Positions 136-35,620 of a DNA stretch of 64,000 nucleotides are shown piece by piece. Within the stretch, counting starts at the first letter, position 1; each line of letters starts with the position of its first letter. The notes under the pieces were generated by a model. The model did not search any database. It saw nothing but the letters and a program-made list of their open reading frames with translations, and had not been told where the DNA came from. The position numbers and the translations under genes were made by a program. This stretch comes from a virus, in the IMG/VR virus record IMGVR_UViG_3300025646_000029, positions 1 through 64,000 of that record, one strand, 5' to 3'.

Positions 136-176
136 TTCGTGAAAACAGCCGAGCAGGTGTGGGATCAGGTCAATGA
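1..176 (+). CDS. 5'-truncated ORF (frame 3) encoding a tetrapeptide-repeat (Q-V-x-x)n protein
   Basis: Frame 3 is open from the window edge to TGA at 174-176, which overlaps the ATG at 173 (ATGA). Translation: VGGQVWNQVGYQVLYQVGIQVFDQVWYQVWNQVGNRVMDQVLEEIRENSRAGVGSGQ. Frame 1 is also open across the repeat, so coding status is uncertain. Confidence 0.25.
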   Translation, partial: VGGQVWNQVGYQVLYQVGIQVFDQVWYQVWNQVGNRVMDQVLEEIRENSRAGVGSGQ

Positions 177-574
177 GAGAGATTAAATTTAGATTTTGGC
201 ATAATGGATTAAGGCAATTCTTACCGGATTACATGTTTGGTATTACTGGCAACTGGATACTTACTTGTGAACCCCGCTTTAAGTTATGGGATGGTCCTCA
301 GTGGGATTTGGCTTCACCTAACACAACGTTAGATATTACCATTCAGCAGTACACGGGACTTAAAGATAAGAATGGAGTGAAGATTTACGAAGGCGATATC
401 TTACGGTGGAACGGTCCTAGTGATATTTATCGAACCGGAGTGGTAAAATATAACCCACCAAGATTTGAAGCCTTAACTGACAGCATTCCAAATATGAATG
501 GTTTACCAGTATATAACATTCTTCACAATAAATCAATGGTTGTTGGAAATATCTTTGAAGGAGTTAATAAATGA
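173..574 (+). CDS. YopX-like phage protein, paralog 1
   Basis: N-terminal MREIKFRFW, central QQYTGLKDKNGVKIYEGDI and C-terminal VVGNIFEGVNK, a pattern shared by five ORFs in this window and typical of the YopX family. Stop and start overlap the flanking genes. Confidence 0.6.
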   Translation: MREIKFRFWHNGLRQFLPDYMFGITGNWILTCEPRFKLWDGPQWDLASPNTTLDITIQQYTGLKDKNGVKIYEGDILRWNGPSDIYRTGVVKYNPPRFEALTDSIPNMNGLPVYNILHNKSMVVGNIFEGVNK

Positions 575-936
575 CTGATAAGTCAGATAAAAAACAGAAG
601 CATCTGGTTCGTTTCGAAGACATGCTGACCGACTCACAAAGAGCGGCGTGGGTAATGACAATTGAAGACGATGAAATATGGATGACGCTTGAAGAAATTA
701 TGGATGCTCATAAGAAATATTGTGAAGATCAAGATATGGGAGATGTTCCTCCAACACGGGGTGAGCTACTTAGAGACATTGGAGACTTTATTAGATTTCA
801 TTACGTGGAAGTTCTAGTAGAATGCAAAACTTGTGATGGTACAGGAGAAGTTCATTCTCATAATCCACAGTGTTGGACATGTTCTGGAAGAGGGTATACA
901 ATTGTGTGGAGAAACAGTTGTCGTAAATCTTCTTGA
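571..936 (+). CDS. small protein with DnaJ-type CxxCxGxG zinc-finger repeats
   Basis: CKTCDGTG and CWTCSGRG motifs. The N-terminal half is paralogous to the 1015..1260 ORF (WMTLEEIM(D/E)AH(K/H)KYCEDQD(M/I)GDVPPT). Confidence 0.45.
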   Translation: MTDKSDKKQKHLVRFEDMLTDSQRAAWVMTIEDDEIWMTLEEIMDAHKKYCEDQDMGDVPPTRGELLRDIGDFIRFHYVEVLVECKTCDGTGEVHSHNPQCWTCSGRGYTIVWRNSCRKSS

Positions 937-1014
937 AAAGAATTATAAATTAGCCAAGAAGATAAAGAAACTACTTTCTGAAAATACAGATTTAATCTTT
1001 AGCAAGGAAAAGAT

Positions 1015-1260
1015 ATGAAATTTCGCCGCATTAGAATAGATCCACAACCCGGACAAAATTACCCGCATCCAGAAGGAACTGCGTGTATTGGTATACACGC
1101 CTTGGAGTCAGATAGATGGATGACACTCGAAGAAATTATGGAAGCTCACCATAAGTATTGTGAAGATCAAGATATAGGAGATGTTCCGCCGACATGGGGT
1201 GAGCTAATTAGAGATCTGGGGTTGTTTATTTGTTTTCATATGGTAGAAGTGAATGAGTAA
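1015..1260 (+). CDS. paralog of the N-terminal domain of the 571..936 protein, lacking the Zn finger
   Basis: About 45 aa align near-identically to 571..936. ATGA overlap at both ends. Confidence 0.4.
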   Translation: MKFRRIRIDPQPGQNYPHPEGTACIGIHALESDRWMTLEEIMEAHHKYCEDQDIGDVPPTWGELIRDLGLFICFHMVEVNE

Positions 1261-1465
1261 AAGAAAACTACACAACAATAAACCAAAGTCTTCCCACAGC
1301 AAATCTCGCAACCAAAGTGAATCTCACAGAAAAGGCTCATGTCTCAGGAAGATTGGATACGATAAAAGGGAAGCATACGAACACAAAAAAATTATGGGAG
1401 ATACTGATCTATCTATTTACAAGTGTAAGTTTTGTGGTAAATTCCATATTGGACATAGGAGTTGA
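1253..1465 (+). CDS. small basic Zn-ribbon protein
   Basis: Lys/Arg/His-rich N-terminus and a C-terminal CKFCGKFH motif. Translationally coupled. Confidence 0.3.
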   Translation: MSKRKLHNNKPKSSHSKSRNQSESHRKGSCLRKIGYDKREAYEHKKIMGDTDLSIYKCKFCGKFHIGHRS

Positions 1466-1947
1466 CAATGAGTGATAAATCAGAAGATCATCCATACGCA
1501 AAGTATCTAAAGTTAAAAGAGCCGGTAGAATTTAAACTTTCTATTTTAGATGATAAAGAACAAAAGTTTTGGGACCATATGGAGAAAAAGAATGACCGAA
1601 ATAGAGAAGGTTGGTACGGGTTTGCAACTTTTGGATATGCTGATCCAGATAAAGAAAATAGAATCAAGAAAAAACTACAAGATTCATTAGACTCATTGAA
1701 ATGGAATACTTGGAATAGATGGAGCGATCCAGACTTAAACGATGTCTACAGTAACGGAATGACTGGAGAAGTTGCGTCTTTTCATGACTGCATTTATGAA
1801 GCACTTAATAAGTCATACGAAATTGAGCAACTGCGGGACATCTTCTTTTCTTTACCAGAACATCTTATTCTAGTAGCAAGAGAATGGGGCTTGTCAGACA
1901 CAGAATTTAGAGAGGCGGTATATTCACACTTATGTCAGAATTCATAA
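1462..1947 (+). CDS. hypothetical protein
   Basis: 161-aa ORF with coupled start and stop. No recognisable motif. Confidence 0.4.
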   Translation: MTMSDKSEDHPYAKYLKLKEPVEFKLSILDDKEQKFWDHMEKKNDRNREGWYGFATFGYADPDKENRIKKKLQDSLDSLKWNTWNRWSDPDLNDVYSNGMTGEVASFHDCIYEALNKSYEIEQLRDIFFSLPEHLILVAREWGLSDTEFREAVYSHLCQNS

Positions 1948-2330
1948 TCGACACTGGTAAAACCAGAACAGAACCAATTGATTACAGTTGGAGAAATAAA
2001 CCCGGAGGTGGATGCCTCGGAGCTATTGACTGCAAAGAATGTGGATGTATTATGGCTGCTCAAGGCAGTCATTGTTTTTGTATGGGGATTTATACCTGTC
2101 CAAGATGTGGTTATGAATCTAAAGGATGGGTGCATAATATTCGTGGATTTAAGAATGGTAGTCCAATTTATGATGACCCCGTTGATATTGATTCGGAAAC
2201 CTTTGAAAAAATCAAAACTGGATTTAAAGCTGTTGACTTTGCCCCAACAGGTGTTATGATAGACCACGATTCTTATGCTATAGCCGATATTATGGTAAAA
2301 TTTTATTTAGGGTTGACAAATGAGTTCTGA
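1932..2330 (+). CDS. Cys-rich hypothetical protein
   Basis: CLGAIDCKECGC...CFCMGIYTCPRCGY. The C-terminal 20 aa (DSYAIADIMVKFYLGLTNEF) are identical to the C-terminus of the 7346..7543 ORF. Confidence 0.4.
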   Translation: MSEFIIDTGKTRTEPIDYSWRNKPGGGCLGAIDCKECGCIMAAQGSHCFCMGIYTCPRCGYESKGWVHNIRGFKNGSPIYDDPVDIDSETFEKIKTGFKAVDFAPTGVMIDHDSYAIADIMVKFYLGLTNEF

Positions 2331-2643
2331 CGAACATAAGCAACGATACATTAACCGCATAAAAGAAGTAGTTAATCCTATGATCTACAAGGAAGTAGAT
2401 GGATATGATGTCATACAATTTAAAGGTGCTGGATTTTTTAGTGCTGAATCATTACGTGTAATTGCCGATTATCTTGATGAAAGAAATAAACCGTGGGACC
2501 ATGTTATCAATGAGGGGATATGTCACCAATGCGGAAGAGCAAAAGAAATGTCAAGAGAAATAACAGAAAATGGAGATCCGATATTTTATGACTGCCACTA
2601 TTGTACTACTATTAATATGATAGACCGCCAAGCGTATCACTAG
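2320..2643 (+). CDS. hypothetical Zn-binding protein
   Basis: CHQCGRAKEM...YDCHYCTT. The start lies inside the conserved junction motif. Confidence 0.4.
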   Translation: MSSDEHKQRYINRIKEVVNPMIYKEVDGYDVIQFKGAGFFSAESLRVIADYLDERNKPWDHVINEGICHQCGRAKEMSREITENGDPIFYDCHYCTTINMIDRQAYH

Positions 2644-2742
2644 CTCAATTAAAAGAGCTATCTCAAGAAGATAGAGCTAAAGTATTCCGGCACTTTTGTC
2701 GAGGATGTAATCGTTACCTTGAAGAAGGAGAGGTTTGCTATT

Positions 2743-3210
2743 GTGAGAAATATTAAATTTCGTGTATGGTCTAAACTTCATAAGAAATGGTATAATAATA
2801 CTATTTTAATAGCCTATGATGGTCTGCCATTTGCTCACTTTGTTAAAGTTGATGATGATGGAAAAGCTGTAGAACATCAGGTATTTAATGCGGAGAATTT
2901 AGACCTTGTAGTTCAACAATCAACGGGACTCACCGATCAGAATGGTCAGGAAATTTACGAGGGGGATATTCTCTCTTTTCCAAAAGACAGTATGGAAGAC
3001 TACATCGTACATGCTGTTGTAAAATATGGCACTGGAGAATTTGATGGTGGAGTTTACAAATATACCGGATTTTATCTTGAAAGCACAGGAGATGATGTTA
3101 ATCTAAAAGAGGGCGACATCATGGAACCCTATGAGATAACAAACCTGCATGATCCAAAGTGGTATCACTACGAAGTAGTGGGAAATATCTTTGAAGGAGT
3201 TGATAAATGA
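2743..3210 (+). CDS. YopX-like phage protein, paralog 2
   Basis: The GTG at 2743 gives M/V-RNIKFRVW like the other paralogs, preceded by the RBS gaaggagagg. QQSTGLTDQNGQEIYEGDI and VVGNIFEGVDK motifs. The track start at 2719 is probably too far upstream. Confidence 0.55.
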   Translation: MRNIKFRVWSKLHKKWYNNTILIAYDGLPFAHFVKVDDDGKAVEHQVFNAENLDLVVQQSTGLTDQNGQEIYEGDILSFPKDSMEDYIVHAVVKYGTGEFDGGVYKYTGFYLESTGDDVNLKEGDIMEPYEITNLHDPKWYHYEVVGNIFEGVDK

Positions 3211-3422
3211 CTAATTACATTGTAATGTGGGAAAGAGATGGTAATGAAGGTTTTGACTTTGTAAACGCAGAAGATGAAGACTCTGCTATTGAGCTATGGC
3301 TCGAACATCAAAATGGTCATCATCCAGATGGTCGTTTATACAAGATGATTATTACCGAAACTAACAATACCTACAAAGTTCCACTGGATTCCTATGGATA
3401 TTATTATGGAGTTGAGAAATGA
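3207..3422 (+). CDS. hypothetical protein
   Basis: 71-aa ORF with ATGA coupling at both ends. Confidence 0.35.
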   Translation: MTNYIVMWERDGNEGFDFVNAEDEDSAIELWLEHQNGHHPDGRLYKMIITETNNTYKVPLDSYGYYYGVEK

Positions 3423-3598
3423 GTTCTGACGAACTAAAAATACAAACCCGATATCAATTTGGATTTCCTTATCATAGAATAGTGTATGGAGATATGGTTG
3501 TCGTAAATCTTCTTGAAAAGAATTATAGATTAGCCAAGACAATAAAGAAGCTACTTTCTGAAAATCCAGATCTAATCTTTAATAAAGAAAAGATATGA
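3419..3598 (+). CDS. small conserved peptide (59 aa), below the ORF-track cutoff
   Basis: MSSDELKIQTRYQFGFPYHRIVYGDMVVVNLLEKNYRLAKTIKKLLSENPDLIFNKEKI. The C-terminal 34 aa are encoded by a ~110-bp repeat also present at 908..1018, with synonymous differences. Confidence 0.3.
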   Translation: MSSDELKIQTRYQFGFPYHRIVYGDMVVVNLLEKNYRLAKTIKKLLSENPDLIFNKEKI

Positions 3599-3771
3599 CT
3601 CACCAAATTACCTGTATCTATTGCCATGACACTATTTTTGTCAATCAAGATAGAGTTCGTAATAATCTATCTCTGAATTTATGGAAGTTTGTCGATTGGG
3701 GCTCTGGCGTTTGTCCAAAGTGTTCTAAAACACTAAAAGAACAAGAAATCACTCAAAGGGTTGACAAATGA
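3595..3771 (+). CDS. small Zn-ribbon protein (58 aa), below the ORF-track cutoff
   Basis: MTHQITCIYCHDTIFVNQ...GSGVCPKCSKTL. Its start overlaps the previous stop (ATGA). It ends ...QRVDK with its stop overlapping the ATG at 3768. Confidence 0.3.
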   Translation: MTHQITCIYCHDTIFVNQDRVRNNLSLNLWKFVDWGSGVCPKCSKTLKEQEITQRVDK

Positions 3772-4106
3772 GCCGTGAGATTAAGTTTCGTTTTTGGGAC
3801 ACACAAGACAAGAAATTTGCTAAGAATCTAGCTATCCTTAATAATGGGACCATTTTAGAAATAGATGTAACGCCATTTTCCCCCAATCAAGATAAGTATA
3901 TTTCTCAACAATACACAGGACTTAAAGATAAGAATGGTGTGGAGATTTATGAGGGCGACATTGTAGAATTTTGCATACCAAAAAATGAACCAGAAACTGA
4001 AACAGTGACTTTTGAAGACGCGGTTTTTTGGGCCGGTTATCCGCTGTATGAAGTCGCCAGTAGTTGTAAAGTAGTTGGAAATGTATTTGAAGGAGTTGAC
4101 AAATGA
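3768..4106 (+). CDS. YopX-like phage protein, paralog 3
   Basis: MSREIKFRFW, QQYTGLKDKNGVEIYEGDI and VVGNVFEGVDK. Confidence 0.6.
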   Translation: MSREIKFRFWDTQDKKFAKNLAILNNGTILEIDVTPFSPNQDKYISQQYTGLKDKNGVEIYEGDIVEFCIPKNEPETETVTFEDAVFWAGYPLYEVASSCKVVGNVFEGVDK

Positions 4107-4387
4107 AATGCCCGGCATGTGGGTACACCCACGAAACCAAAACAGAAATGGTTGGCGATGTTATTCGTTACAAATCTGGAAAAAGAAAAGGCGAGATCAA
4201 AGAAGTTAAAACAAAAACAATAACTTTAGAGATCGGTCATGAGCCATTTGAAGCAGTAACAATTTCTCATTGTCGGGTCGTACACCACAGGGAAGCCGAA
4301 TACGGTTTCTGCGGGGACAAAGATCGTGAGGAAATATCATTTAATGCCTGCCCCGAATGCGGTTGTATGTTTATTGATAGGGGTTGA
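4103..4387 (+). CDS. Zn-ribbon protein
   Basis: MKCPACGY...CPECGC motifs. Confidence 0.4.
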   Translation: MKCPACGYTHETKTEMVGDVIRYKSGKRKGEIKEVKTKTITLEIGHEPFEAVTISHCRVVHHREAEYGFCGDKDREEISFNACPECGCMFIDRG

Positions 4388-4390
4388 CAA

Positions 4391-4657
4391 ATGACCAAAG
4401 AAAATGGCGGCATAGATGGTTATATTGATACTAGGGAGTATACTATGCTTTGGATTAAAGACGCAATAAAATGGAAAGAGCTACCGCTTGTCGAGAAATT
4501 GGAAGCCTTACGCCTTCACTATTGCACCGGTCCATGCGGTCAGTCTAGCAGTATTTTAGCTACTCGGTCTGCGACCGACTCCGCCCTTAAAGAAGCAATG
4601 AAGACAATTGATTCGTTAAGTCGATTGAGCGGAAGTAGAGAAGATTACACCACGTGA
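4391..4657 (+). CDS. hypothetical protein
   Basis: 88-aa ORF preceded by the junction motif ggggttgacaaATGa. Confidence 0.35.
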   Translation: MTKENGGIDGYIDTREYTMLWIKDAIKWKELPLVEKLEALRLHYCTGPCGQSSSILATRSATDSALKEAMKTIDSLSRLSGSREDYTT

Positions 4658-4692
4658 ACTGCTGGTGCTTGAAGAAAGATAGGCATGTTACT

Positions 4693-5136
4693 ATGAGAAG
4701 TATTAAGTTTAGAATTTGGCACAAACCAACAAATCAATTCGTAAGATGTCATCCTGTATGGGATGATGAAAAGTATACAGACCTTGGGCTTTTATCACTT
4801 ACTTCCGATGGTGAATTAATATTTGAAACTAAGTATGATGGATTCCAAAGGTTAAGTAGTAATGAGGTTGACGATTTTATCGTCCAGCAATACACCGGAC
4901 TCAAAGATAAGAATGAAGTGGAGGTTTATGAGGGAGATATCGCAGACTGGTGCGAAGATTCATACATAGACGAGGGTACTCAACCAGCTACAATAGTTTG
5001 GCACGAACTAGAAGGCTGGAAATGTACTTGGTATACAGAAGACAGGTCTGAATTATGTACAGAACCACTGTATTTTTATGAAAATCATCGCTACTTTGAG
5101 GTAATCGGAAATATCTTTGAAGGAGTTAAGAAATGA
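4693..5136 (+). CDS. YopX-like phage protein, paralog 4
   Basis: The ATG at 4693 gives MRSIKFRIW. VQQYTGLKDKNEVEVYEGDI and VIGNIFEGVKK motifs. Confidence 0.55.
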   Translation: MRSIKFRIWHKPTNQFVRCHPVWDDEKYTDLGLLSLTSDGELIFETKYDGFQRLSSNEVDDFIVQQYTGLKDKNEVEVYEGDIADWCEDSYIDEGTQPATIVWHELEGWKCTWYTEDRSELCTEPLYFYENHRYFEVIGNIFEGVKK

Positions 5137-5789
5137 TTGTAGTAGCTGGAACCACATATAGAACCGGGACGACGTTAATTCAAAGACTGATCAATACTTC
5201 ATCAGAAGAACGTGTAATATATGGTGAAGACAACGCGATTCTACAGTGCGTTTCTAATTATTTAAGCTTTACCCGCAATTCATTAAAGCGATCAAATGCA
5301 CAAACAGAAATCTTCAAGAAAGATAAAAATTCTTTTACAGCAAATATGCTACCATTGAATAAAGTGCCTTACGCTTGTGCAAATTTTATCAACAGTTTGT
5401 ATTTCAATTCTGGGTTTAAAGTTTTGTCACCAACAATCGAGCAAATCAAAACACTAGCGGCTATCTCTGACGCGAAGATAGTTTTAATGTATAGAAACGT
5501 ACAAGAAAGTTGGAGATCCTACCAAAGTATGTATAATTGGGTAGATAAAAAAACATTCTTTGGTTATTTTGAGAGATCTAGAGAATTGTTAAAATCTTCC
5601 CTAAATGGTGAGCTAGACTACGTTTATACAATAAAGTATGAAGATATAGCCCGAGATACAATTGAAAGATTATTCGATTGGTTAGAAATATCCAATAGAG
5701 ATAATATCGCAGAGGTATTAAATCTTAAACTAAAGGAAATGGACGGTTTTAGCAATAGTAGTGATTCTTATTTAGAGGTTGACAAATGA
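5133..5789 (+). CDS. sulfotransferase-like protein
   Basis: N-terminal AGTTYRTGTTL resembles the PAPS 5'-phosphosulfate-binding loop (PKSGTTW-like). LMYRNVQESWRSY resembles the 3'-phosphate-binding RNPxD..S.Y motif. The size fits a sulfotransferase domain. Confidence 0.4.
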   Translation: MIVVAGTTYRTGTTLIQRLINTSSEERVIYGEDNAILQCVSNYLSFTRNSLKRSNAQTEIFKKDKNSFTANMLPLNKVPYACANFINSLYFNSGFKVLSPTIEQIKTLAAISDAKIVLMYRNVQESWRSYQSMYNWVDKKTFFGYFERSRELLKSSLNGELDYVYTIKYEDIARDTIERLFDWLEISNRDNIAEVLNLKLKEMDGFSNSSDSYLEVDK

Positions 5790-5817
5790 AGCTATCCAAG
5801 TCGATGAAGGAAGTGAA

Positions 5818-5949
5818 ATGAGTGATTTACCATCGGGATATAACTTCAAAATACAGGTGCCGGGAAAACACAAACCACACAAAGAATATAACGACCCGCA
5901 CAACAGATTGTCGCAATTGTGTGTACTTGGCTTTAGGAATAATAAATGA
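5818..5949 (+). CDS. tiny ORF (43 aa) in an ATGA-coupled chain
   Basis: MSDLPSGYNFKIQVPGKHKPHKEYNDPHNRLSQLCVLGFRNNK. Its stop overlaps the ATG at 5946. An 11-aa ORF at 5786..5821 links it to the upstream gene. Confidence 0.2.
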   Translation: MSDLPSGYNFKIQVPGKHKPHKEYNDPHNRLSQLCVLGFRNNK

Positions 5950-6491
5950 GAGGGATTAAGTTTACGGATAAAATAATTGTAATTGATGTTGAATCCACAT
6001 GCGATGAAAACAAAGAGGGATTTATAAGTGAAATAATTGAGATAGGAATGACAGACTCAAACGGAAAAGAAATTCCTTCTATTTTTGTAAAACCAAAATA
6101 TTCTATAGTTACGCCATTTTGTACCAGATTAACAACTTTGACTCCTGAAGAAATTGAAGCAAAAGGTCAAGAGCCAGAAATTGCATATAAAAATCTCGAA
6201 TCTATATTTTCAAAATATACTAGGTGGGCATCTTATGGATATTACGACAAAAAAATGTTTGAAAAAATGAGTAGTCTATACGGGCTAGATATAAGGCTGC
6301 CACCGATACATATAAATGTTAGATTACTTTTTGCTCAAGAAATATTAAATAGTAATGATCCTCAAAAAGCACCAAGAAATCCCAAGGACGCACTAATTAT
6401 GCTGGGTAAAGAATTTCAAGGGGTAAATCACAGAGGGGAAGATGACGCTATAAACATAGCAAATCTTTATAATTTGTTAATTCAATTCTAG
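5946..6491 (+). CDS. DnaQ-like 3'-5' exonuclease (DEDDh family)
   Basis: Exo I motif VIDVEST and exo III motif HRGEDDAINIANLY (H-x4-D). 181 aa. Confidence 0.65.
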   Translation: MRGIKFTDKIIVIDVESTCDENKEGFISEIIEIGMTDSNGKEIPSIFVKPKYSIVTPFCTRLTTLTPEEIEAKGQEPEIAYKNLESIFSKYTRWASYGYYDKKMFEKMSSLYGLDIRLPPIHINVRLLFAQEILNSNDPQKAPRNPKDALIMLGKEFQGVNHRGEDDAINIANLYNLLIQF

Positions 6492-6504
6492 GAGTTATGG
6501 GTAA

Positions 6505-6936
6505 ATGAGAGCGATTAAGTTTCGGGCATGGAATAAAAGAGAGAAAGGATGGGAGCAAGAACATTCCTGTTATGGGATTGGGCTAGACGGAACAATTATT
6601 CCTGCGACGCCTTGTGTAACTCCCATTCGTCCTTTTAATAAGGACAGCGTAATTATCCAGCAGTATACTGGACTTAAAGACAAGAAAGGTCGAGAGATTT
6701 ATGAGGGCGATTTAATTATATCAGATCATTGGGCTTCGCAAGAACCATTAGTAGTTAGCTGGGATAAAGACGCCTGTAAATTTTACGCTTCACTTTCAAC
6801 TGGTGGAGAATACATTGATATGGACGAGGCTAGTAAACTGGTGGTCGGTAATATTTTTGAAGGAGTTGATAAATTAGTGATGAAATCACATACGGCGAAA
6901 TCTGCTGGTACGGTCAGGGTTTTTGGGGGTAAATAA
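6505..6936 (+). CDS. YopX-like phage protein, paralog 5 with a C-terminal extension
   Basis: MRAIKFRAW, IQQYTGLKDKKGREIYEGDL and VVGNIFEGVDK, followed by 20 extra residues. RBS aggag upstream. Confidence 0.55.
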   Translation: MRAIKFRAWNKREKGWEQEHSCYGIGLDGTIIPATPCVTPIRPFNKDSVIIQQYTGLKDKKGREIYEGDLIISDHWASQEPLVVSWDKDACKFYASLSTGGEYIDMDEASKLVVGNIFEGVDKLVMKSHTAKSAGTVRVFGGK

Positions 6937-6939
6937 CCA

Positions 6940-7161
6940 ATGCTTTACTTCATGAAGTTGATTGCAGCGAATGGTATAATTGGCTTCATTCACGTATTTT
7001 CGATTTACCTGGAGTCACAAATACCACGGGAGCGTCTTGATTTGGTGTTGATTGTCACGTTTTTTCATTTGTCGGCCACTTTCTGGCTTATGGACAGAAG
7101 CCTTAAAAAGAACTGGTTCAATCTCTTTCCCGGCAGAAAAGGTAGGGGTCTTTTCTGGTGA
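6940..7161 (+). CDS. small hydrophobic protein, possibly membrane
   Basis: Two hydrophobic stretches, IAANGIIGFIHVFSIY and LVLIVTFFHLSATFWL. Confidence 0.25.
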   Translation: MLYFMKLIAANGIIGFIHVFSIYLESQIPRERLDLVLIVTFFHLSATFWLMDRSLKKNWFNLFPGRKGRGLFW

Positions 7162-7272
7162 GGTAAATAAATATGAAAACAGATAATCAGACGACGAAAC
7201 TCTTTCGATCAATTGGCTGTGCCTTTTGCGTAGCCTTTTTATTGTTGTCGTGCTGGTTTTGGCGGGTGTGCA

Positions 7273-7300
7273 TTGAAATGGAGTACTTCTTACGTATAAT
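7273..7300 (+). promoter_or_regulatory. sigma70/sigmaA-like promoter candidate (TTGAAA-16-TATAAT)
   Basis: ttgaaa at 7273-7278, a 16-bp spacer, and a perfect tataat at 7295-7300. It lies about 45 bp upstream of the ORF at 7346, in the only sizeable gap of the left arm. Confidence 0.35.
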
Positions 7301-7345
7301 ACATGTGCTAAAATATTTTACAGAATACTAAACAGGACTTGACAA

Positions 7346-7543
7346 ATGAGTTTACAAGATCAAGCAGAAAATTTAGAAGCAATTAAATTAATGTGTTCCA
7401 AATACAAAGAAGAACTAAAAGAAAAGGCTCTTAAAATGGTTTGGGAGCAAGATCAAGAAGAAGGGCAGGGGTGGTCTGACGATTCTTATGCTATAGCCGA
7501 TATTATGGTAAAATTTTATTTAGGGTTGACAAATGAGTTCTAA
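7346..7543 (+). CDS. hypothetical protein sharing a C-terminal tail with 1932..2330
   Basis: Ends DSYAIADIMVKFYLGLTNEF. 63 bp are identical to 2266..2328. Confidence 0.35.
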   Translation: MSLQDQAENLEAIKLMCSKYKEELKEKALKMVWEQDQEEGQGWSDDSYAIADIMVKFYLGLTNEF

Positions 7544-8081
7544 AACGAGATTCACATCAATAACGACATCAAGCAATGCATACACAACCAAAATAGTTGA
7601 CAGCTTATTTGACGACATTAGAACAAAAACCAACTGGCGCACAAAAATTCTACGTAGAACCATAAATTTTTACAGAGACCTTCGGTATTTTTTTATGAAA
7701 ATTTGTCAACGGTTTCAATATGGATTTCCGCTCGAACAGGTGTGGGAGTTCCATTGTTGGCATTCTGAAATTGTTGTGCCGCGACTTAAACTGCTAAAGA
7801 AAATTCGATCGAAACACCCAACTGATTTAACAAACGAAGAATGGGGGGATATTCTAGACAAAATGATTTGGTCATTTGAAAACCACGATGATGTCATAGA
7901 GCCAACCTACAGCGAAGATTACGACCACCGTTATGAAGTAGCCAGCTATGAAAAATTTACTTCGTATACCACTCTAAATAAAACTGGGACAATTGATTGG
8001 TCTCCAGTCAGAAAACATGAAACAAAAGTTCAAGAAGGACTTGATTTGTTTGCCAAATATTATTTGAATCTTTGGGATTAA
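7533..8081 (+). CDS. hypothetical protein
   Basis: 182-aa ORF starting in the junction motif. Contains copy 1 of the 29-bp direct repeat. Confidence 0.45.
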   Translation: MSSKTRFTSITTSSNAYTTKIVDSLFDDIRTKTNWRTKILRRTINFYRDLRYFFMKICQRFQYGFPLEQVWEFHCWHSEIVVPRLKLLKKIRSKHPTDLTNEEWGDILDKMIWSFENHDDVIEPTYSEDYDHRYEVASYEKFTSYTTLNKTGTIDWSPVRKHETKVQEGLDLFAKYYLNLWD

Positions 8082-8107
8082 AACTTGACTTTTATTAAGA
8101 GCGGCAA

Positions 8108-8317
8108 ATGAGTAAATTACAGGATCTTCTTTTTAGGGCGAGTATCTATGGCGCTGAAGTTAAATACGACAATGGTACTTTTATCATTGTATGCCAAAAT
8201 GGTGCATTTTTAACCAGTAAAGACCTGTATACTCTACTTGAAGAAAGCGGCGTCAAAGTTGATACAATATATGCTAGAGATAATAGCTTGATTGTAAATA
8301 TTTCAATGAAAGATTGA
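8108..8317 (+). CDS. hypothetical protein
   Basis: 69-aa ORF. Confidence 0.3.
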   Translation: MSKLQDLLFRASIYGAEVKYDNGTFIIVCQNGAFLTSKDLYTLLEESGVKVDTIYARDNSLIVNISMKD

Positions 8318-8320
8318 TAA

Positions 8321-8650
8321 ATGAAAAAAATTGAAAATATCATACAAGCTTTTCGGGTTCTTAGTGCTTTAAAAGTAAAAGAAGTGGTATTACCGCATCT
8401 TGAATACCGCGAACTAAAACACTTGGTAGATCGTCATTTTTTAAATAACATCTCACATAATTCTCAAGAAAAATTTGAGGAATCTACAACAGTGCTAATT
8501 TATGGAGTTCAGGTTAAATCAGAACGGTTCCCTAAATACGAAAAGATTGACTACATAACCCCAGATAAATTCGCTGTTCAGCTCAAAAAAATGACAGAAG
8601 TAAAGATTAAATCGCGACCTCATACGCCGCGAGACGAACTGGATGACTAA
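8321..8650 (+). CDS. hypothetical protein
   Basis: 109-aa ORF. Confidence 0.35.
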   Translation: MKKIENIIQAFRVLSALKVKEVVLPHLEYRELKHLVDRHFLNNISHNSQEKFEESTTVLIYGVQVKSERFPKYEKIDYITPDKFAVQLKKMTEVKIKSRPHTPRDELDD

Positions 8651-8773
8651 ATGGATGTTATAAATTAACAGCCGCCGCTACCCTGGCAGCAGCTGACATC
8701 AAGCAATACATGCACAACCAAAAAGGAGCACGAAATAAATAGATTTAGATATGACGATGTTGATTGGGGCTAC

Positions 8774-9148
8774 GTGCTGAGAGCGCTGATTGATGCAACC
8801 CAATCGCGAAGAATTAGGTGGCAAGTTTACAGTCGTATGCAGCGTCCAGACGCGACTTCGGTGATATACCGCGGAGCATACAAGGGCTTTAATATCGTAT
8901 TGTTTAAATTCGCTGTAGATATTCCCGACGAGTCTTTTGCGGGCGATCTTGAAGACGTGTGCATTCTTATTGTAGACGAAGATGGCAAAGAGCTGTTTCG
9001 GATCCCTGCGGACTCGCAGCGGTGGCAACTTCTTAAACTTGTCCAATATGAAGCCGCTAACATTAGCACATTTATAGAGGATTTGTCGAGGCGGACGGCG
9101 AGAAATCCATTCTGGCTGTGGTCATGGTTCCGTCCGGGTCGCCGGTGA
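8774..9148 (+). CDS. hypothetical protein within the GC-rich island
   Basis: 124-aa ORF in a markedly GC-richer segment. The start is uncertain (GTG/CTG context). Confidence 0.3.
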   Translation: MLRALIDATQSRRIRWQVYSRMQRPDATSVIYRGAYKGFNIVLFKFAVDIPDESFAGDLEDVCILIVDEDGKELFRIPADSQRWQLLKLVQYEAANISTFIEDLSRRTARNPFWLWSWFRPGRR

Positions 9149-9230
9149 ATGGCCAGCGAGGCAGAAGTTAAGGCCGCGCGTGCGGCGTATTTGCAAAGAA
9201 TTTCAAAAGCGAAATCTTGAAGGGAAACAC

Positions 9231-9441
9231 AATGATTGTGCTGAATGTTGCGGTAAACGAACCTATCCATTGTTTCAAAGATGGGGAACTGATCCTCACG
9301 ATCACACGAGTGGAATCTTCAAAAATGAGTTTCGAATGCGATCGCGGTATCCGCGTCGTGCGAGATAAAGTCCTCGCGCGTGAGTCAGAAAACATAGCCG
9401 CCACGACTTCCGTGAATGCAATGGAATTCACTGAAGACTGA
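9231..9441 (+). CDS. CsrA/RsmA-like small RNA-binding regulator (candidate)
   Basis: MIVLNVAVNEPI...GELILTITRVE...GIRVVRDKVLARE follows the CsrA pattern of MLILTR.VGE.I.IGD.I.VTVL...G..VRIG..AP..V.V.REEI, with alternating beta-strand hydrophobics and a conserved R-E near the end. RBS gaaggga upstream of the ATG at 9231. Confidence 0.35.
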
Positions 9442-9480
9442 TAAAATTGATTTCTGTACCAGAATAAGAGTCTTTCGACA

Positions 9481-9753
9481 TTGATTACGAATGGAGATTT
9501 GAATTATACGAGAAAATTTATGAACAAAAAAACAAAAAATCCACTAGATAGTATATTGAATATGGACGAAAATTGGTATATACTAAAACGTGGTGAAAAG
9601 ATAGAAATAGGTGACGAGTGGCTATCGGATGAAGGGTGGAAACCTTACTCAAAAGCATCTCTCGGTTACTGTATCTATGGAAGAATATCCAGAAGAAAAA
9701 CAGAAAAAGAAGAAACCGCGCCAGCAGAAAAAAATAAAGAAAATTTATTTTGA
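9481..9753 (+). CDS. hypothetical protein
   Basis: 90-aa ORF with a Lys/Glu-rich C-terminus. Confidence 0.3.
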   Translation: MITNGDLNYTRKFMNKKTKNPLDSILNMDENWYILKRGEKIEIGDEWLSDEGWKPYSKASLGYCIYGRISRRKTEKEETAPAEKNKENLF

Positions 9754-9844
9754 TTTAGATTTTTTGCTTTTAGGTTTAATTTAAAATCACCTAAAAGGAG
9801 AAGGACTGTTACCGACAACAAACTTGTTATAAAGGGGCAGTCTT

Positions 9845-10375
9845 ATGGAAGCAGCATTTTCTTGGATTGGCGCTATAATCGAGTGGTTTGGGTTGTTTAT
9901 TCCCAGAAGAATAATCGTAAAACCAACAGATGTCCTGATAAAATCTACTTTCTCTGGGGTTGCAAAAGAAAAAAAACCAGGGCTTCGTTGGTATTGGCCT
10001 ATAACAACTGACATCGACCTGATAACAGTTGCGAGGCAACCGATAGACATAAAGCAAATAAACTTTGTAACAAAAGATGGACTGCCATGCAAAGCAGACT
10101 GCGCTTGTACTTATTACATAAACGACCCAATAAAGTTTTTTACTGAAAATTACGAGGGGCATTTGGCTCTTTTTGAGTTGATAAGCTTTGTGTTTTCAAA
10201 AAAACTAAGAAGCATGACCTTTGATCAAATACAGAATTCATCAAAAATAAACGAAGACTTGACTGAAGAAATAACAAAGGAGGCGGATTTTCTGGGAATA
10301 GAAGTAGAATACGTAAGATTGCAAAACTTCACTTGGATGATTCCAATTGGATTAATAAAAGACGACCGAGATTAA
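9845..10375 (+). CDS. SPFH/band-7 (stomatin/HflK-like) domain protein
   Basis: N-terminal hydrophobic segment, then IVKPTDVLIKSTFSGVAKEKKPGLRWYWPITTDI...VTKDGLPCKADCACTYYINDPIKF. This resembles the SPFH core (V.E.e.gV.erfGk....L.PGlhf..Pfi..v...d.r......itkDn..v.vd..v.yrI.dp). Confidence 0.45.
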   Translation: MEAAFSWIGAIIEWFGLFIPRRIIVKPTDVLIKSTFSGVAKEKKPGLRWYWPITTDIDLITVARQPIDIKQINFVTKDGLPCKADCACTYYINDPIKFFTENYEGHLALFELISFVFSKKLRSMTFDQIQNSSKINEDLTEEITKEADFLGIEVEYVRLQNFTWMIPIGLIKDDRD

Positions 10376-10411
10376 AGATTAGAAAAGGGAAAATATGAAA
10401 GAAAAAAACAG

Positions 10412-11383
10412 ATGTCGATATTTGACGAGCAAATTACTAGAAAACCTAACAACTATCCTTGGACAGAGGAATTTATAGAGGCAATGCATGCCGGTCACTG
10501 GACCGACAAAGAGTTCAACTTTATAAGCGATATAAAAGATTTTGACTGCTCTCTTGATGACCAAGAAAAAGAAATAGTCTCACGGACTCTTTCTGCAATT
10601 GGGCAAATCGAAGTTGCTGTAAAAACCTTTTGGGCAAAGCTTGGGGAAAATCTTCCGCACCCATCTTTATCTGACTTAGGGTATGTTATGGCCAACACGG
10701 AAGTTATTCATAACAACGCTTACGAGAGACTTTTGTCTTGCCTGAATATGGAAGAAATATTTGAAAAAAATATGAACCTCGAATGGATGGCGGGGCGAGT
10801 AAAGTATCTTAAAAAGTACACACATAGGTTTTACAAAGACTCAAAGAAACAGTACGTGTACGCGCTTATTCTTTTTACTCTTTTTGTAGAAAACGTGTCG
10901 CTTTTTTCTCAGTTTTACATTATCTTGTGGTTTTCTAGAAACAAAAATGTTTTGAAAGACACGAGTCAACAAGTAATGTATACTAAAAACGAAGAAACAA
11001 TTCACGCCAAAGTTGGAATCAAAATTGTAAACACGATTCGAAAAGAACTTCCAGAACTTTTTGACGAAGATCTTGAGCAAAAAATTCTTCACGAAGCAGA
11101 AGAAGCATTCAAAGCAGAGTCAAAAATAATAGACTGGATAGTAAACGGATACGAACAAAACGGGTTGTCGTCTGAGTTGCTAAAAGAGTACATTAAAAAT
11201 AGAATAAACGAAAGTTTAAACCAAATTGGCTTTAATCAAATTTTTGAAATAAACCAGAAATTGATTGATAAAACTCTTTGGATGGATGACCAAGTTGTCG
11301 GTAAAAATTCTGTTGACTTTTTCTTTCAAAGACCAGTTGATTACGCAAAAAATATACAAATAGACGAGGATGACCTTATATGA
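10412..11383 (+). CDS. nrdB: ribonucleotide reductase class I small (beta) subunit
   Basis: Ferritin-like di-iron signatures: NTEVIHNNAYERLL (E..H helix) and VENVSLFSQFYIILWF. 323 aa, directly upstream of and overlapping nrdA. Confidence 0.8.
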   Translation: MSIFDEQITRKPNNYPWTEEFIEAMHAGHWTDKEFNFISDIKDFDCSLDDQEKEIVSRTLSAIGQIEVAVKTFWAKLGENLPHPSLSDLGYVMANTEVIHNNAYERLLSCLNMEEIFEKNMNLEWMAGRVKYLKKYTHRFYKDSKKQYVYALILFTLFVENVSLFSQFYIILWFSRNKNVLKDTSQQVMYTKNEETIHAKVGIKIVNTIRKELPELFDEDLEQKILHEAEEAFKAESKIIDWIVNGYEQNGLSSELLKEYIKNRINESLNQIGFNQIFEINQKLIDKTLWMDDQVVGKNSVDFFFQRPVDYAKNIQIDEDDLI

Positions 11384-33058: not shown

Positions 33059-34915
33059 ATGATAAACCTACATGTACACTCGAAACACAGCTGGGACTGC
33101 ATATCATCAATAAAAGGCATAGTTCAAGCTGCGGTTGAATACGGACAAGACGCCATAGCTGTTACTGACCACGGCTTGATGAGTGGCGCGATGGAATTGT
33201 TTTTAGAAGCCCGAAAGGCTGGAATAAAGCCCATAATAGGGTGCGAGTTTTACGTCTGCCCACCGGGTATAAAAAAAGAAGATAAAAACAGTGAGTCCAG
33301 AAGACTGAATCATCTAGTTGTTTTGGCAAAAAATCTTGTTGGATATAAAAACCTTATAAAGCTGAACTATATAGCGCACGAAAATTTTTACTACCGCCCA
33401 AGAATAGACGAACAAGCTTTGTTCGAAAACTCGGAAGGACTAATAGTAATAAACGGCCACTTCGATACCAGTGTTCACGACTGTCTATTTTTTAACAGAG
33501 AGATGGCTTCAGCTGCTACAACCGAAGAAGAGTGCTGGCTTTATATACACCCTGAGTGCGAAGATAATGTTCTTAAAATAGTTTCGAGATATCAGGAATT
33601 TTTTGGCGAAGATTTCTATTTAGAGTGCCAAATGTTCGACCAGAAAGACCCGATACAGCAAGTGGCGTCGAAAAAGCTTTTAGAAATATCTAGAAAATAC
33701 AAAATAAACGCGGTCGGTACAGGGGATGCTCATTACATAAAACAAGAAGATGCGATTTTTCATAAAACGTTTTGCGCAATAAAACAAAATAAGAGAGTAA
33801 AAGACCTACCCAGCATAAGCTACTATACAAACGGGTCTTATTCTATAGTTTCAAACGAGCACGCAGCAAAAACCTATTCACCAGAACTGATTGACGCGAC
33901 TCACGAAATAGCGGCAAAAATAGAAGACTTCGACATAACTATTCCAATGGCCATACCTTCTTTTAGTTCAGAAGGGGCGTACAAACCAAAAGAAATTGTG
34001 CGCGACAAATGTATAGAGAAACTAAAGAAACTAGGCCTTCACAACGAAGAGTATATCAAAAGATTAGATTACGAAATAAATGTATTAGAACTTGGTAATC
34101 TGTACGACTACTTTCTTGTGGTAGAAGATTATTGCGAATTCGCACGCAAACAATCAATGCTGATTGGCCCCGGAAGAGGGTCTTCTGGTGGATGCCTGAT
34201 TTCTTATCTGCTCGATATAGTTTCAATAAACCCGATTGAGTATAACCTCAGCTTTGATAGATTCTTTTCTGCAGAAAAAGCTAGGTCGGGATCTATACCA
34301 GACATTGATACTGATTTTCAGTCGTCCAGAAGAGACGAAATCATAAGTTATATACAAAAAAAATACGGAAAAAGAAAAGTTTGCGAGGTTGTTACTTACG
34401 GGAAACTTCAAGCTAAAAATGCCCTCAAAGACGTACTCAGGGCTCACGCTGCTTGTACACCAATGGTAGCAAATATAATAACTAAAAACATACCAGACAA
34501 AGACAAAATATCTGACAAACTCCAAGATTTCTTTGAAGAAACCGGTTCTTCAAGCGTGCTTTATTATTGTTTGAAAAAAGAACCAAAACTTTTGTCCGAT
34601 TATTGCCGTCTTTCAACAAAAGAAGACGGGACGGAAATTTTTGAAGGAGATTACGCCGAATCTTTCATGGTAGCGGTAGGACTAGAGGGCGCTATCAAAT
34701 CATCTTCGAGGCACCCGTCTGCTTTGATCATATCTCCTTATAATATAGACGAAATATGCCCGATGTTATTAGATAAAAAAACAAACCAAATGATAACGGC
34801 CTACGACATGTATTATTTTCCCTATGCGTCTCTAGTGAAATTTGATATTCTTGTTTTAAAATCTCTTGACTGCCTTGCGGAAGTTAATACTTTGTTAAAG
34901 GAAACGGGGTTATGA
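33059..34915 (+). CDS. dnaE: DNA polymerase III alpha (DnaE-type) N-terminal fragment: PHP, palm and thumb
   Basis: PHP motif INLHVHSKHS...AVTDHGLMSGAMELF and HLVVLAKNLVGYKNL. Catalytic PDIDTDF. Ends at the FDILVLKSL (KFDFLGL-equivalent) motif. Confidence 0.8.
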   Translation: MINLHVHSKHSWDCISSIKGIVQAAVEYGQDAIAVTDHGLMSGAMELFLEARKAGIKPIIGCEFYVCPPGIKKEDKNSESRRLNHLVVLAKNLVGYKNLIKLNYIAHENFYYRPRIDEQALFENSEGLIVINGHFDTSVHDCLFFNREMASAATTEEECWLYIHPECEDNVLKIVSRYQEFFGEDFYLECQMFDQKDPIQQVASKKLLEISRKYKINAVGTGDAHYIKQEDAIFHKTFCAIKQNKRVKDLPSISYYTNGSYSIVSNEHAAKTYSPELIDATHEIAAKIEDFDITIPMAIPSFSSEGAYKPKEIVRDKCIEKLKKLGLHNEEYIKRLDYEINVLELGNLYDYFLVVEDYCEFARKQSMLIGPGRGSSGGCLISYLLDIVSINPIEYNLSFDRFFSAEKARSGSIPDIDTDFQSSRRDEIISYIQKKYGKRKVCEVVTYGKLQAKNALKDVLRAHAACTPMVANIITKNIPDKDKISDKLQDFFEETGSSSVLYYCLKKEPKLLSDYCRLSTKEDGTEIFEGDYAESFMVAVGLEGAIKSSSRHPSALIISPYNIDEICPMLLDKKTNQMITAYDMYYFPYASLVKFDILVLKSLDCLAEVNTLLKETGL

Positions 34916-35298
34916 CTGACGACCACTTTAGTACACACTTATCAAAACAACTTGAGTATCACAGAAATTGTGTTGGTTTAGGACTTGTGTGCAAAGAGTT
35001 GTTTTTTCAACTTATAGAGTATGTAATAAATTTTTTCTTAGATTCTCAGGAAGAATGCTGGTTAGACAGCGAGACAACTTCTATATCCAAGATGAAAAAA
35101 ACTGGCTATGGATATAAAATAGGAGAAGAGGAGTATGTATTACAAGTCGAATGCACTTGTTGCGACTACTCAAGATTCTACGAGATAGAAGATCTACAGG
35201 AAGCCGCCAAGTGCTTTATAACAAGATGCTTAGAATGTTCTTTTAAAAGACACGTAAAGGTAGTTCCCTGTGATAAAAAACGAAGACGTAGTTCTTGA
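34912..35298 (+). CDS. hypothetical Cys-rich protein inside the dnaE split
   Basis: 128 aa with CTCCDY...C..C. ATGA-coupled to the dnaE N-fragment. Confidence 0.4.
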   Translation: MTDDHFSTHLSKQLEYHRNCVGLGLVCKELFFQLIEYVINFFLDSQEECWLDSETTSISKMKKTGYGYKIGEEEYVLQVECTCCDYSRFYEIEDLQEAAKCFITRCLECSFKRHVKVVPCDKKRRRSS

Positions 35299-35620
35299 GT
35301 TTGAGCGAGACATGTCTGATAACCCAGATTTCTGGATCGAAAAGTTTTTGAAAAACGCAGACGAAGACGTGGCATTTATAATTGAACGAACCAGGGATAT
35401 AAAAGAAGTTTCTCCCGATGACTCTTTTGATTACGGATTTTTGCTAGGTTTAATGTTGATGTGCAGAATAAATAAAGTTTCAGACTCTGAGACACTTGAA
35501 GAATTAAAAACAAAATTCTGCGCGTACAAAAGGTGGGTGGAGTATCTAGAGCAAGAGACGTGTGAATTAAAACAGAAAAGTAAGGTTGGGAATGCTAACA
35601 TTAGGGCAAATAAGAAATGA
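35270..35620 (+). CDS. hypothetical protein inside the dnaE split
   Basis: 116-aa ORF. Confidence 0.35.
   Translation: MIKNEDVVLEFERDMSDNPDFWIEKFLKNADEDVAFIIERTRDIKEVSPDDSFDYGFLLGLMLMCRINKVSDSETLEELKTKFCAYKRWVEYLEQETCELKQKSKVGNANIRANKK

Follow-up and report, generated by a model that had tools for sequence, protein, structure and literature searches.

The early region of an uncultivated tailed phage contains a short segment that is richer in GC than the surrounding genes. This raises the question whether the segment was acquired from elsewhere, by which route, and what kind of protein it encodes. The window, which is the whole 64-kb stretch of DNA analysed here, has 38% GC and carries genes for ribonucleotide reductase, ThyX, a split DnaE, DnaB, a RecA-like protein, PhoH and several YopX paralogues. 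The GC-rich island is located within an array of small early genes on the plus strand. The original prediction took it for a possible moron with a CsrA-like gene, and the adjoining copy of a 29-bp direct repeat as in line with acquisition by recombination. The features of the locus are listed in Table 1.

Table 1. Features of the GC-rich island and of the region to its left (positions within the 64-kb window).
Feature	Position	Strand	Description
182-aa gene	7533-8081	+	contains repeat copy 1
Repeat copy 1	7565-7593	+	codons 11-20 (TTSSNAYTTK) of the 182-aa gene
Left GC-rich patch	8615-8694	+	52.5% GC; last 12 codons of the 109-aa gene, mini-ORF and hairpin
Mini-ORF MDVIN*	8651 (ATG)-8668 (TAA)	+	within the left GC-rich patch
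Imperfect GC-rich hairpin	8669-8695		minus-strand terminator-like site in scan; fold z-score -0.2, not special
Repeat copy 2	8695-8723	+	inside the island, in the 34% GC patch 8695-8750, in the open frame of ORF-A
ORF-A	8774-9148	+	124 aa from GTG; orphan, coding status uncertain
Cassette, left part	9149-9231	+	23-codon remnant (MASEAEVKAARAAYLQRISKAKS*) and ribosome-binding site
69-aa gene	9232-9441	+	protein-coding, tiny orphan family; longer form from 9217 has 74 aa

Extent and composition of the GC-rich island

Using a maximum-likelihood segmentation of positions 7000-11000 with two boundaries, the best fit for the island was 8615-9414, with 48.5% GC compared to 35.5% around it (log-likelihood gain 22.5). 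In 200-nt windows the GC fraction is 0.45-0.55 from about 8600 to 9450, up from 0.30-0.36. The interval named in the original prediction, 8660-9441, has 48.0% GC and the complete window 38.2%. A GC-rich segment therefore exists as predicted, but its left edge lies about 45 nt further to the left, in the last codons of the 109-aa gene. In 800-nt windows (mean GC 0.382, standard deviation 0.031) only the tail-gene region near 59 kb exceeds the island. The composition within the island is uneven, with just 34% GC at 8695-8750.

The two predicted plus-strand ORFs were found at 8774-9148 (ORF-A, 124 aa, GTG start) and at 9217/9232-9441 (74/69 aa), and overlapping ORFs are indeed present on both strands: 115, 147 and 87 aa for those of the minus strand and 62 aa for that of the plus strand. 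The 109-aa gene and the 90-aa gene are the neighbours of the two predicted ORFs. GC3 is 0.50 in both island ORFs compared to 0.23-0.36 in the ten neighbouring genes that were scored. A blastn search with 7300-9800 against GenBank phages gave no match, the 109-aa neighbour gene has no homologue beyond near-identical contigs, and a search of 7300-9900 against Rfam gave no match at E<=1. Two non-coding stretches of the island had folding z-scores of -0.2 and +0.3, which indicated no structured RNA.

Exact-protein look-ups for relatives free of the island returned only contigs that are 99.9-100% identical, all of them with the island. Samples in which the phage occurs are ERZ27275027, ERZ27275010, JGI 3300007960 and SRR5468116. 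A sign of shuffling in the early region is the variant contig L008, which has a different left part. Searches via the Band_7 neighbour in IMG/VR and metagenomes yielded no island-free relative, or one unrelated contig of 66% GC, and the large subunit of ribonucleotide reductase retrieved relatives at 56% identity, which are without the early genes. No syntenic relative was obtained in either the Band_7 or the ribonucleotide reductase searches. As an island-free relative was not found, the insertion is deduced from the composition and from the other contexts of the cassette described below, and not from an empty site.

A single-gene cassette in several genomic contexts

The right third of the island, positions 9149-9443, is a discrete single-gene cassette. 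Besides the 69-aa gene and the ribosome-binding site of this gene, it contains an 83-nt remnant from the end of a neighbouring gene. Using blastn, the metagenome contigs L012, L013 and L014 matched the window only at 9147-9443, 9149-9443 and 9159-9443, with identities of 84.5, 81.4 and 82.8%, respectively. The alignment identity begins at ATG 9149 and stops at the stop codon. A comparison of L012 with L014 revealed that similarity is lost upstream of the same point and that about 210 nt more are in common downstream. A fifth version of the cassette is present in L097. Altogether, at least three further genomic contexts contain the cassette, and the left breakpoint is common to all of them within about 12 nt. 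Because this sequence is found with sharp breakpoints in contigs of 51-54% GC that are otherwise unrelated to the phage, it has to be regarded as horizontally exchanged DNA. These contigs carry tightly packed small orphan genes; they showed no viral hallmark genes, no PHROG matches and no GenBank phage match, and the size and packing of their genes suggest that they may be phages. The GC content of the cassette is about 48-50% in every context. The copy in the window shows no drift to low GC, with 11 lineage-specific changes from GC to AT and 10 from AT to GC.

In the other contigs the 69-aa gene is preceded by a gene whose C-terminal tail corresponds to the remnant at the left end of the cassette. 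In the window, 9149-9231 is in frame with ORF-A, with only TGA 9146-9148 between them, and ORF-A shows no homology to the gene preceding the cassette in L012 and L013. Substitutions in 9149-9231 are distributed over the three codon positions as 6/11/5, without third-position bias, and an RNA structure signal was not detected in this stretch. The variable sites of the 69-aa gene are distributed as 16/10/31 with a dN/dS of 0.26, which indicates purifying selection; by this substitution pattern it truly codes for a protein, one that belongs to a very small orphan family. The homologues are 61-81% identical (77-81% for P0002-4 and about 61-64% for P0006) and formed four clusters in an indexed search of 5.8 billion sequences and five in an exhaustive search of 1.8 billion representatives. 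No hit was obtained in IMG/VR or among 185,579 species genomes (GTDB) with a degenerate motif that fits all known members of the family.

We consider it likely that the GC-richer patch reflects ordinary phage mosaicism and combines two or more pieces of foreign composition in the early array. The right piece, the cassette, would be transferred when co-infecting phages recombine at short sequences that they share. We infer this route because the early region is rich in such sequences and the phage encodes a RecA-like recombinase. The left piece, 8615-9148, carries the orphan ORF-A, the 5' end of which seems to be damaged or rebuilt. As no homologue of this piece was found anywhere, its GC content is the one property that points to a foreign origin.

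The opposite reading takes the stretch as ancestral to the phage and its higher GC as the outcome of chance variation or of local constraints on coding; it appears very improbable to us. Similar GC values are reached elsewhere in the window (18.9-19.9 kb, 51-52 kb and 58-60 kb), the island is present in all available copies of the phage, and the sequence has not drifted to the GC of the genome. Such a reading does not account for a cassette that shows 81-85% nucleotide identity in contigs sharing nothing else with the phage, for breakpoints at the same place across contexts, or for the GC3 of the two ORFs compared to their ten neighbours. For 9149-9443 it is, on the alignments, already contradicted.

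Mosaic accessory-gene cassettes of tailed phages are known as morons in the broad sense, and in lambdoid and T4-type phages small early genes are shuffled at short conserved gene-boundary sequences. The cassette resembles the former in being a small gene of odd composition between unrelated neighbours that occurs in several contexts with sharp breakpoints, and the region of the island resembles the latter in its richness in short repeats at gene ends. It differs from the mosaic cassettes in that an own promoter and terminator were not found and that the 29-bp repeat does not flank it. A consensus scan for sigma-70-type promoters detected none in 8600-9232, and a plus-strand terminator after 9441 was absent from the scan. 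The predicted moron is foreign in composition, but the strict sense of the term, an autonomous transcription unit placed between genes that are neighbours in relatives, is not supported, as the scan yielded neither an own promoter nor a plus-strand terminator.

The 29-bp repeat and the open frame of ORF-A

The two copies of the repeat are identical at 27 of 29 positions. They are the only matches in the 64 kb with three mismatches permitted, and none were expected on the basis of 100 shuffles. The predicted repeat therefore exists beyond chance, but copy 2 is located at 8695-8723 and not at 8686-8714. It does not abut the left edge of the island as had been proposed: about 80 nt of sequence with 52% GC lie to its left, and GC-rich DNA is present on both its sides. 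A third copy was found neither near 9441 nor at the right end of the island, even with three mismatches permitted. An element with flanking repeats, such as a target-site duplication or an att-like structure, was rejected, as both copies lie to the left of the ORFs and none at the right end. The early region contains many dispersed short direct repeats, the 29-bp repeat being one of them, in addition to an exact 63-bp repeat, repeats of 116 bp and 140 bp, and conserved ends of the YopX genes. Not flanking the island, lying in a patch of native composition and being one of many, the repeat is not supported as an insertion footprint, and we do not read it as the boundary of inserted DNA. What remains of the proposed foreign acquisition is the horizontal exchange of at least the right part of the island, not the route via the 29-bp repeat.

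The most plausible reading of the repeat is a short tract of recombination or gene conversion that the 182-aa gene and ORF-A share in their 5' coding parts; outside of it the two show no paralogy. The 29-mer could also have a sequence-specific function. An AAGGAG at 8723-8728 directly follows copy 2, its first A being the last base of the repeat. The C-terminal 85 residues of the 182-aa protein match phrog_11543 (unknown function, E 3e-16), and 147 homologues are present in IMG/VR. At 35-41% identity most of them align from residue 20 only and one from residue 5, and their N-termini are about 9 residues shorter. In comparison with this family, the protein of the window has an extra N-terminal extension of about 9 residues, which coincides with the repeat.

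Alternatively, the two copies could represent the duplicated homology left when the 1.1-kb segment 7594-8694 was inserted by a single (Campbell-type) crossover. The native-GC segment, with the body of the 182-aa gene, the 69-aa gene of that segment, the 109-aa gene and the hairpin, would then be the insert. It would have entered an older gene reaching from ATG 7533 into ORF-A, and ORF-A would have lost its start. In line with this, removal of 7594-8723 in silico produces an unbroken ORF of 161 codons with its ATG in a canonical junction (MSSKTRFTSITTSSNAYTTKKEHEINRF...), the codon phase counted from the closest ATG upstream is the same for both copies, the frame of ORF-A is open for 35 codons before the first canonical start, and the additional N-terminal residues of the 182-aa protein are found where the repeat sits. 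Nevertheless, we regard such an insertion as improbable. The chance probability is roughly 1/3 for the agreement in phase and 0.17 for the open frame, the reciprocal product would be without an intact start, and none of the variant contigs contains the deleted form. Furthermore, ATG 7533 looks native to the 182-aa gene, because its product begins with MSSK..., similar to the MSK(K/E)... at the N-termini of the homologues.

ORF-A could also be non-functional, either a decaying remnant or a non-coding spacer that arrived with the cassette, and to this we assign slightly less than an even chance. It was skipped by the gene callers on all examined contigs but one, it has no clear codon-phase signal (-3.4, -4.8 and -12.8 compared to +6 and +5 in frame for neighbouring genes), its odd W-rich C-terminus terminates exactly at the cassette junction, and no search retrieved a homologue. 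Ahead of ORF-A an ATG, placed as is typical of gene junctions, runs into an in-frame TAA. From 8669 onwards no stop interrupts the frame of ORF-A, with CTG 8693 and ATA 8735 (6 nt after AAGGAG) as other possible starts, and GTG 8774, the first canonical start, has no good ribosome-binding site. On the other hand, an open frame of 160 codons is improbable in DNA of 48% GC (estimated at about 3e-4 per frame), and a single-sequence AF2 prediction gave an ordered five-strand sheet with helices (pLDDT 57, pTM 0.47), a confidence above what we would expect of random sequence. The suggested relation of the 124-aa ORF to FliW was not supported by any profile or fold match, the Pfam search included.

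The 69-aa protein in comparison with CsrA

None of the library searches confirmed the predicted resemblance of the second ORF to CsrA, and only a weak profile-profile signal was left. The 69-aa protein gave no match in Pfam (PF02599) or NCBIfam at E<=10, none to the four CsrA-like PHROG families (phrog_9500, 5527, 31572 and 8397) at E<=1, none to E. coli CsrA by BLASTP at E<=100, and nothing in a PADLOC scan. A phmmer search of the PDB did not retrieve CsrA, and neither did fold searches, the results of which were insignificant. The original prediction had named uniform GC together with a missing CsrA match as grounds for abandoning it; the match is absent, and the GC is not uniform.

A true but very divergent CsrA/RsmA protein, which as a domain-swapped dimer would bind GGA-containing RNA and alter host translation, is therefore a doubtful identification. 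Using hhalign, the five-member family aligned with nine Pfam-validated CsrA sequences from end to end and nearly without gaps (1-59 to 1-60). The score was 16.7-17.3 and the P value 0.008-0.009, a single-comparison value that does not count as an independent test because the idea of CsrA had first arisen from inspecting the sequence by eye. Only 2 of 150 column-shuffled CsrA profiles scored as high, and an unfiltered hmmsearch with our own CsrA profile gave 0.6-11 bits, but the hhalign probability was just 4-5%. The length of the protein is compatible with CsrA. A single-chain AF2 model (pLDDT 59.6) places strands at 2-7, 12-16, 19-24, 31-36 and 40-44 and a helix at 45-55, which would be the CsrA order at the CsrA positions.

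The RNA-binding edges of CsrA consist of L2, L4, R6 and R7 in strand 1 and V40, V42, R44 and I47 in strand 5, with A-P before strand 5. This list was compiled from established knowledge and the invariant columns of the CsrA alignment. I/L2, L4, V42, R44 and V47 are retained in the 69-aa family; M1, L4, E10, V42 and R44 are aligned with identical CsrA residues and V47 with I47. In contrast, the CsrA-invariant residues R6, A36-P37 and E46 are replaced by V, C-D and K, and R7 is exchanged for A, P or D. The family is similar to CsrA/RsmA (PF02599) in length and in the weak collinear profile alignment, its predicted five strands followed by a helix would also fit, and it differs from the CsrA set in a conserved acidic tail, ATTSV(D/N)AME..ED, without counterpart there.

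The CsrA identity of the 69-aa gene is not supported. Its product is probably a beta-strand dimer with a C-terminal helix and an acidic tail, and it would be a small accessory early protein with a macromolecule of the host or the phage as its binding partner. A CsrA-type mode of RNA binding is the single most specific guess, one that we hold with considerable doubt. Somewhat speculatively, and rather unlikely in our estimation, the protein might found a very divergent branch of the CsrA fold that lost the basic residues of strand 1, gained a conserved acidic tail, spread as a 0.3-kb cassette among freshwater and estuarine phages of very different GC and acts early on the translation of host or phage mRNA. 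Since PHROGs already holds four CsrA-like phage families, a confirmed link would be a new branch and not a new idea. As a practical lesson, the CsrA label should stay out of the annotation. Taken together, the analysis helps to annotate this phage and illustrates cassette exchange, a phenomenon that is already well known. The locus provides a clean small example of the movement of a single gene between phages: a 295-bp unit has one left breakpoint across several unrelated contexts, and its distinct composition is retained in a genome of 38% GC as in those of 53% GC.

The GC-rich island and its reading frames

The window, with a GC content of 38.2%, represents the genome of a tailed phage. It encodes ribonucleotide reductase subunits, a DnaB-type helicase, a DnaE polymerase in two parts, a RecA-like protein, PhoH and a 2390-aa tape-measure-like protein; the gene tables additionally list ThyX, DNA ligase and several YopX paralogues. 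No close relative was found among GenBank phages, and several ENA, JGI and Logan assemblies hold contigs identical to the window. Within the split DnaE region (33059-38502) the PHP and NTPase domains (33059-34915) are separated from the finger and HhH domains (36898-38502) by a 159-aa orphan ORF and an RNase_T-type exonuclease gene (36062-36898). The plus strand carries every gene from 1 to about 47 kb, and the island is located within an array of small early genes.

The GC-rich island of the original prediction is real. Using 200-nt windows, the GC content was 0.45-0.55 at about 8600-9450 versus 0.30-0.36 on both flanks. The segment 8660-9441 (48.0% GC) lies about 3 standard deviations over the 800-nt-window mean, and a two-boundary likelihood fit delimited 8615-9414 with 48.5% versus 35.5% GC. 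GC3 was 0.50 in each island ORF versus 0.23-0.36 in ten scored neighbouring genes. The predicted ORFs were also recovered, including overlapping ORFs on both strands. The GC content is uneven across the island (see table). There was no Rfam match, the folding of the non-coding stretches was not unusual, and neither a promoter nor a plus-strand terminator of the island's own was found.

Features of the island and of the early region (positions in the window)
Feature	Position	Characteristics
Island sub-segment	8615-8694	52.5% GC
Island sub-segment	8695-8750	34% GC
Island sub-segment	8751-9148	49.5% GC
Island sub-segment	9149-9441	47-49% GC
124-aa ORF (ORF-A)	8774-9148	plus strand
69-aa gene	9232-9441	plus strand
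Segment in common with L012	9147-9443	84.5% nucleotide identity
Segment in common with L013	9149-9443	81.4% nucleotide identity
Segment in common with L014	9159-9443	82.8% nucleotide identity
29-bp repeat, copies 1 and 2	7565-7593 / 8695-8723	
Exact 63-bp direct repeat	2266-2328 / 7479-7541	last 18 codons, stop, next gene's start (ATGAGTTCT)
116-bp repeat	903-1018 / 3483-3598	89% identical; between small early genes
140-bp repeat	673-812 / 1111-1250	81% identical; between small early genes

ORF-A, in the left part of the island, has no homologue besides itself and a flat codon-phase signal; it was called as a gene on one examined contig only and skipped by the gene callers on all others. GTG 8774, the first canonical start codon in its frame, is without a good ribosome-binding site, and a perfect AAGGAG is located 6 nt upstream of ATA 8735. 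The frame is open back to 8669. Immediately after the stop of the 109-aa gene comes an ATG (8651), placed like other gene starts in the region but with an in-frame TAA five codons later. An imperfect GC-rich hairpin (CAGCCGCCGCTACCCTGGCAGCAGCTG) at 8669-8695, directly upstream of the second copy of the 29-bp repeat, was scored as terminator-like for the minus strand only, yet the local genes all run on the plus strand. For the neighbouring 109-aa protein (8321-8650), PADLOC gave NsnC as a weak match (E 0.0033, 15 bits), and a search of 5.8 billion proteins found no homologue besides itself.

The cassette with the 69-aa gene

The substitution pattern in four sequences indicates that the 69-aa gene is real: variable sites are distributed 16/10/31 over the codon positions, and the annotated frame has a dN/dS of 0.26. 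Of the five other frames, four give 0.74 to 2.2; the remaining one, an antisense frame, gives 0.35, the kind of value expected where a frame mirrors coding sequence. The family is small, with four clusters in a word-indexed search of 5.8 billion proteins and five in an exhaustive profile search of 1.8 billion representatives, where two more matches were repeat proteins (E 2e-4). A degenerate DNA motif matching every known member had no match in IMG/VR or in 185,579 bacterial and archaeal species (one genome each), and therefore there is no sign of a cellular source.

Three short metagenome contigs (L012, L013 and L014) carry homologues with 77-81% identity, and L097 carries a more distant homologue; the GC content of these contigs is 51-54%. 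Outside the segments listed in the table the three short contigs share nothing with the window. Identity extends from the ATG at 9149 up to the stop codon of the 69-aa gene. Since L012 and L013 also diverge from L014 upstream of this point, three contexts have the same left breakpoint; downstream, these contigs resemble each other for about 210 nt further. In L012 and L013 the 69-aa gene is preceded by a 100-105-aa gene, whose C-terminal tail is encoded by the 83 nt just upstream; the window keeps only this tail (MASEAEVKAARAAYLQRISKAKS*). The remnant of 23 codons is in the frame of ORF-A, split from it by the single TGA 9146-9148. This common frame at 9146-9151 mirrors the continuous ORF of L012 and L013. 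ORF-A was considered as a homologue of the 100-105-aa gene and rejected, as there is no homology between them.

The GC content of the cassette is 47.6-49.7% in all four contexts. Lineage-specific changes in the window copy amount to 11 GC>AT versus 10 AT>GC, and no drift towards low GC was seen. The right part of the island is an exchanged cassette with one nicely delimited gene. No hallmark genes were found on the other cassette-bearing contigs, which we infer to be phages. Because an island-free relative was not found in the collections searched, the proposed recent acquisition rests on the composition and on the presence of the cassette elsewhere.

Comparison of the 69-aa protein with CsrA

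The proposed resemblance of this protein to CsrA was not borne out by the searches. There was nothing in Pfam at E<=10 and no match in NCBIfam, PADLOC or PHROGs, though the latter includes four CsrA-like families, which genuine CsrA sequences match at up to 5e-35. BLASTP against E. coli CsrA found nothing, and phmmer against the PDB returned only a stringent starvation protein B homologue (E 0.26). A weak signal came from hhalign with nine aligned CsrA sequences (9/9 match PF02599): the five-member family aligned end-to-end and nearly ungapped, with a score of 16.7-17.3, P 0.008-0.009 and a probability of 4-5%. This score was reached by 2/150 column-shuffled CsrA profiles, and the reversed-profile control scored 7.2.

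An AF2 model (pLDDT 59.6) contains strands at residues 2-7, 12-16, 19-24, 31-36 and 40-44 and a helix at 45-55, which we take to be the CsrA order of elements. M1, L4, E10, V42 and R44 align with identical residues of CsrA and V47 with I47, whereas R6, A36-P37 and E46, invariant in the nine sequences, are replaced by V, C-D and K. As the CsrA idea arose from looking at the sequence, the statistics of this single comparison are not an independent test. True homology to CsrA is doubtful, and the label is not demonstrated.

The 29-bp repeat and rearrangement of the early region

With three mismatches allowed, the 29-bp sequence has two matches in the window versus none in 100 shuffles, far beyond chance. 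The repeat itself is real, but its second copy lies 9 nt to the right of the predicted position and not at the island edge. The copies do not bracket the island, and copy 2 sits in a patch with the recipient's composition, with GC-rich patches on both sides.

Both copies are in the same codon phase (TSSNTCTTK in the ORF-A frame, TSSNAYTTK for copy 1 in the 182-aa gene, 7533-8081), and the distance to the nearest upstream ATG (8651 for copy 2) is 2 mod 3 for both. A single-crossover insertion of 1.1 kb between the copies into an older ORF predicts that deletion of this DNA restores an intact frame, and in silico the deletion does yield an ORF of 161 codons from ATG 7533 into ORF-A. However, members of the 182-aa family start with MSK(K/E), to which the MSSK start at ATG 7533 is similar, and for this reason we regard such an insertion as quite improbable. 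For most homologues of the 182-aa protein the alignment begins only at residue 20, just past the repeat, and for one at residue 5; the N-termini of these homologues are about 9 residues shorter, which suggests that the tract was written into the 182-aa gene. A short recombination or conversion tract, like the other repeats of the early region, fits the 29-bp repeat.

Many dispersed direct repeats, derived from gene ends in common and from paralogues, are present in this region. Because of the 63-bp repeat, a 132-aa gene and a 65-aa gene that otherwise differ end identically. The 116-bp and 140-bp repeats point to paralogy or conversion. At least five YopX-family paralogues at 173-6936 have 3' ends conserved at the nucleotide level (GTNGGAAATATCTTTGAAGGAGTTGAYAAATGA). 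These ends, which include the ribosome-binding site of the next gene and its start codon overlapping the stop, are likely recombination hot spots. At positions 1-136 a 12-bp unit (AGGTCNGGNATC) is repeated in tandem about 11 times, inside a small gene whose start precedes the window. In a population variant (contig k141_535759; L008 1-2766) the arrangement differs from the window left of 2744, and at the departure point the 231 bp of window 3193-3423 recur with 98.7% identity. The variant represents cassette rearrangement within one phage population. Taken together, the 29-bp repeat is not the footprint of an insertion, and the island is a mosaic patch of an ordinary kind within the early region of a phage.
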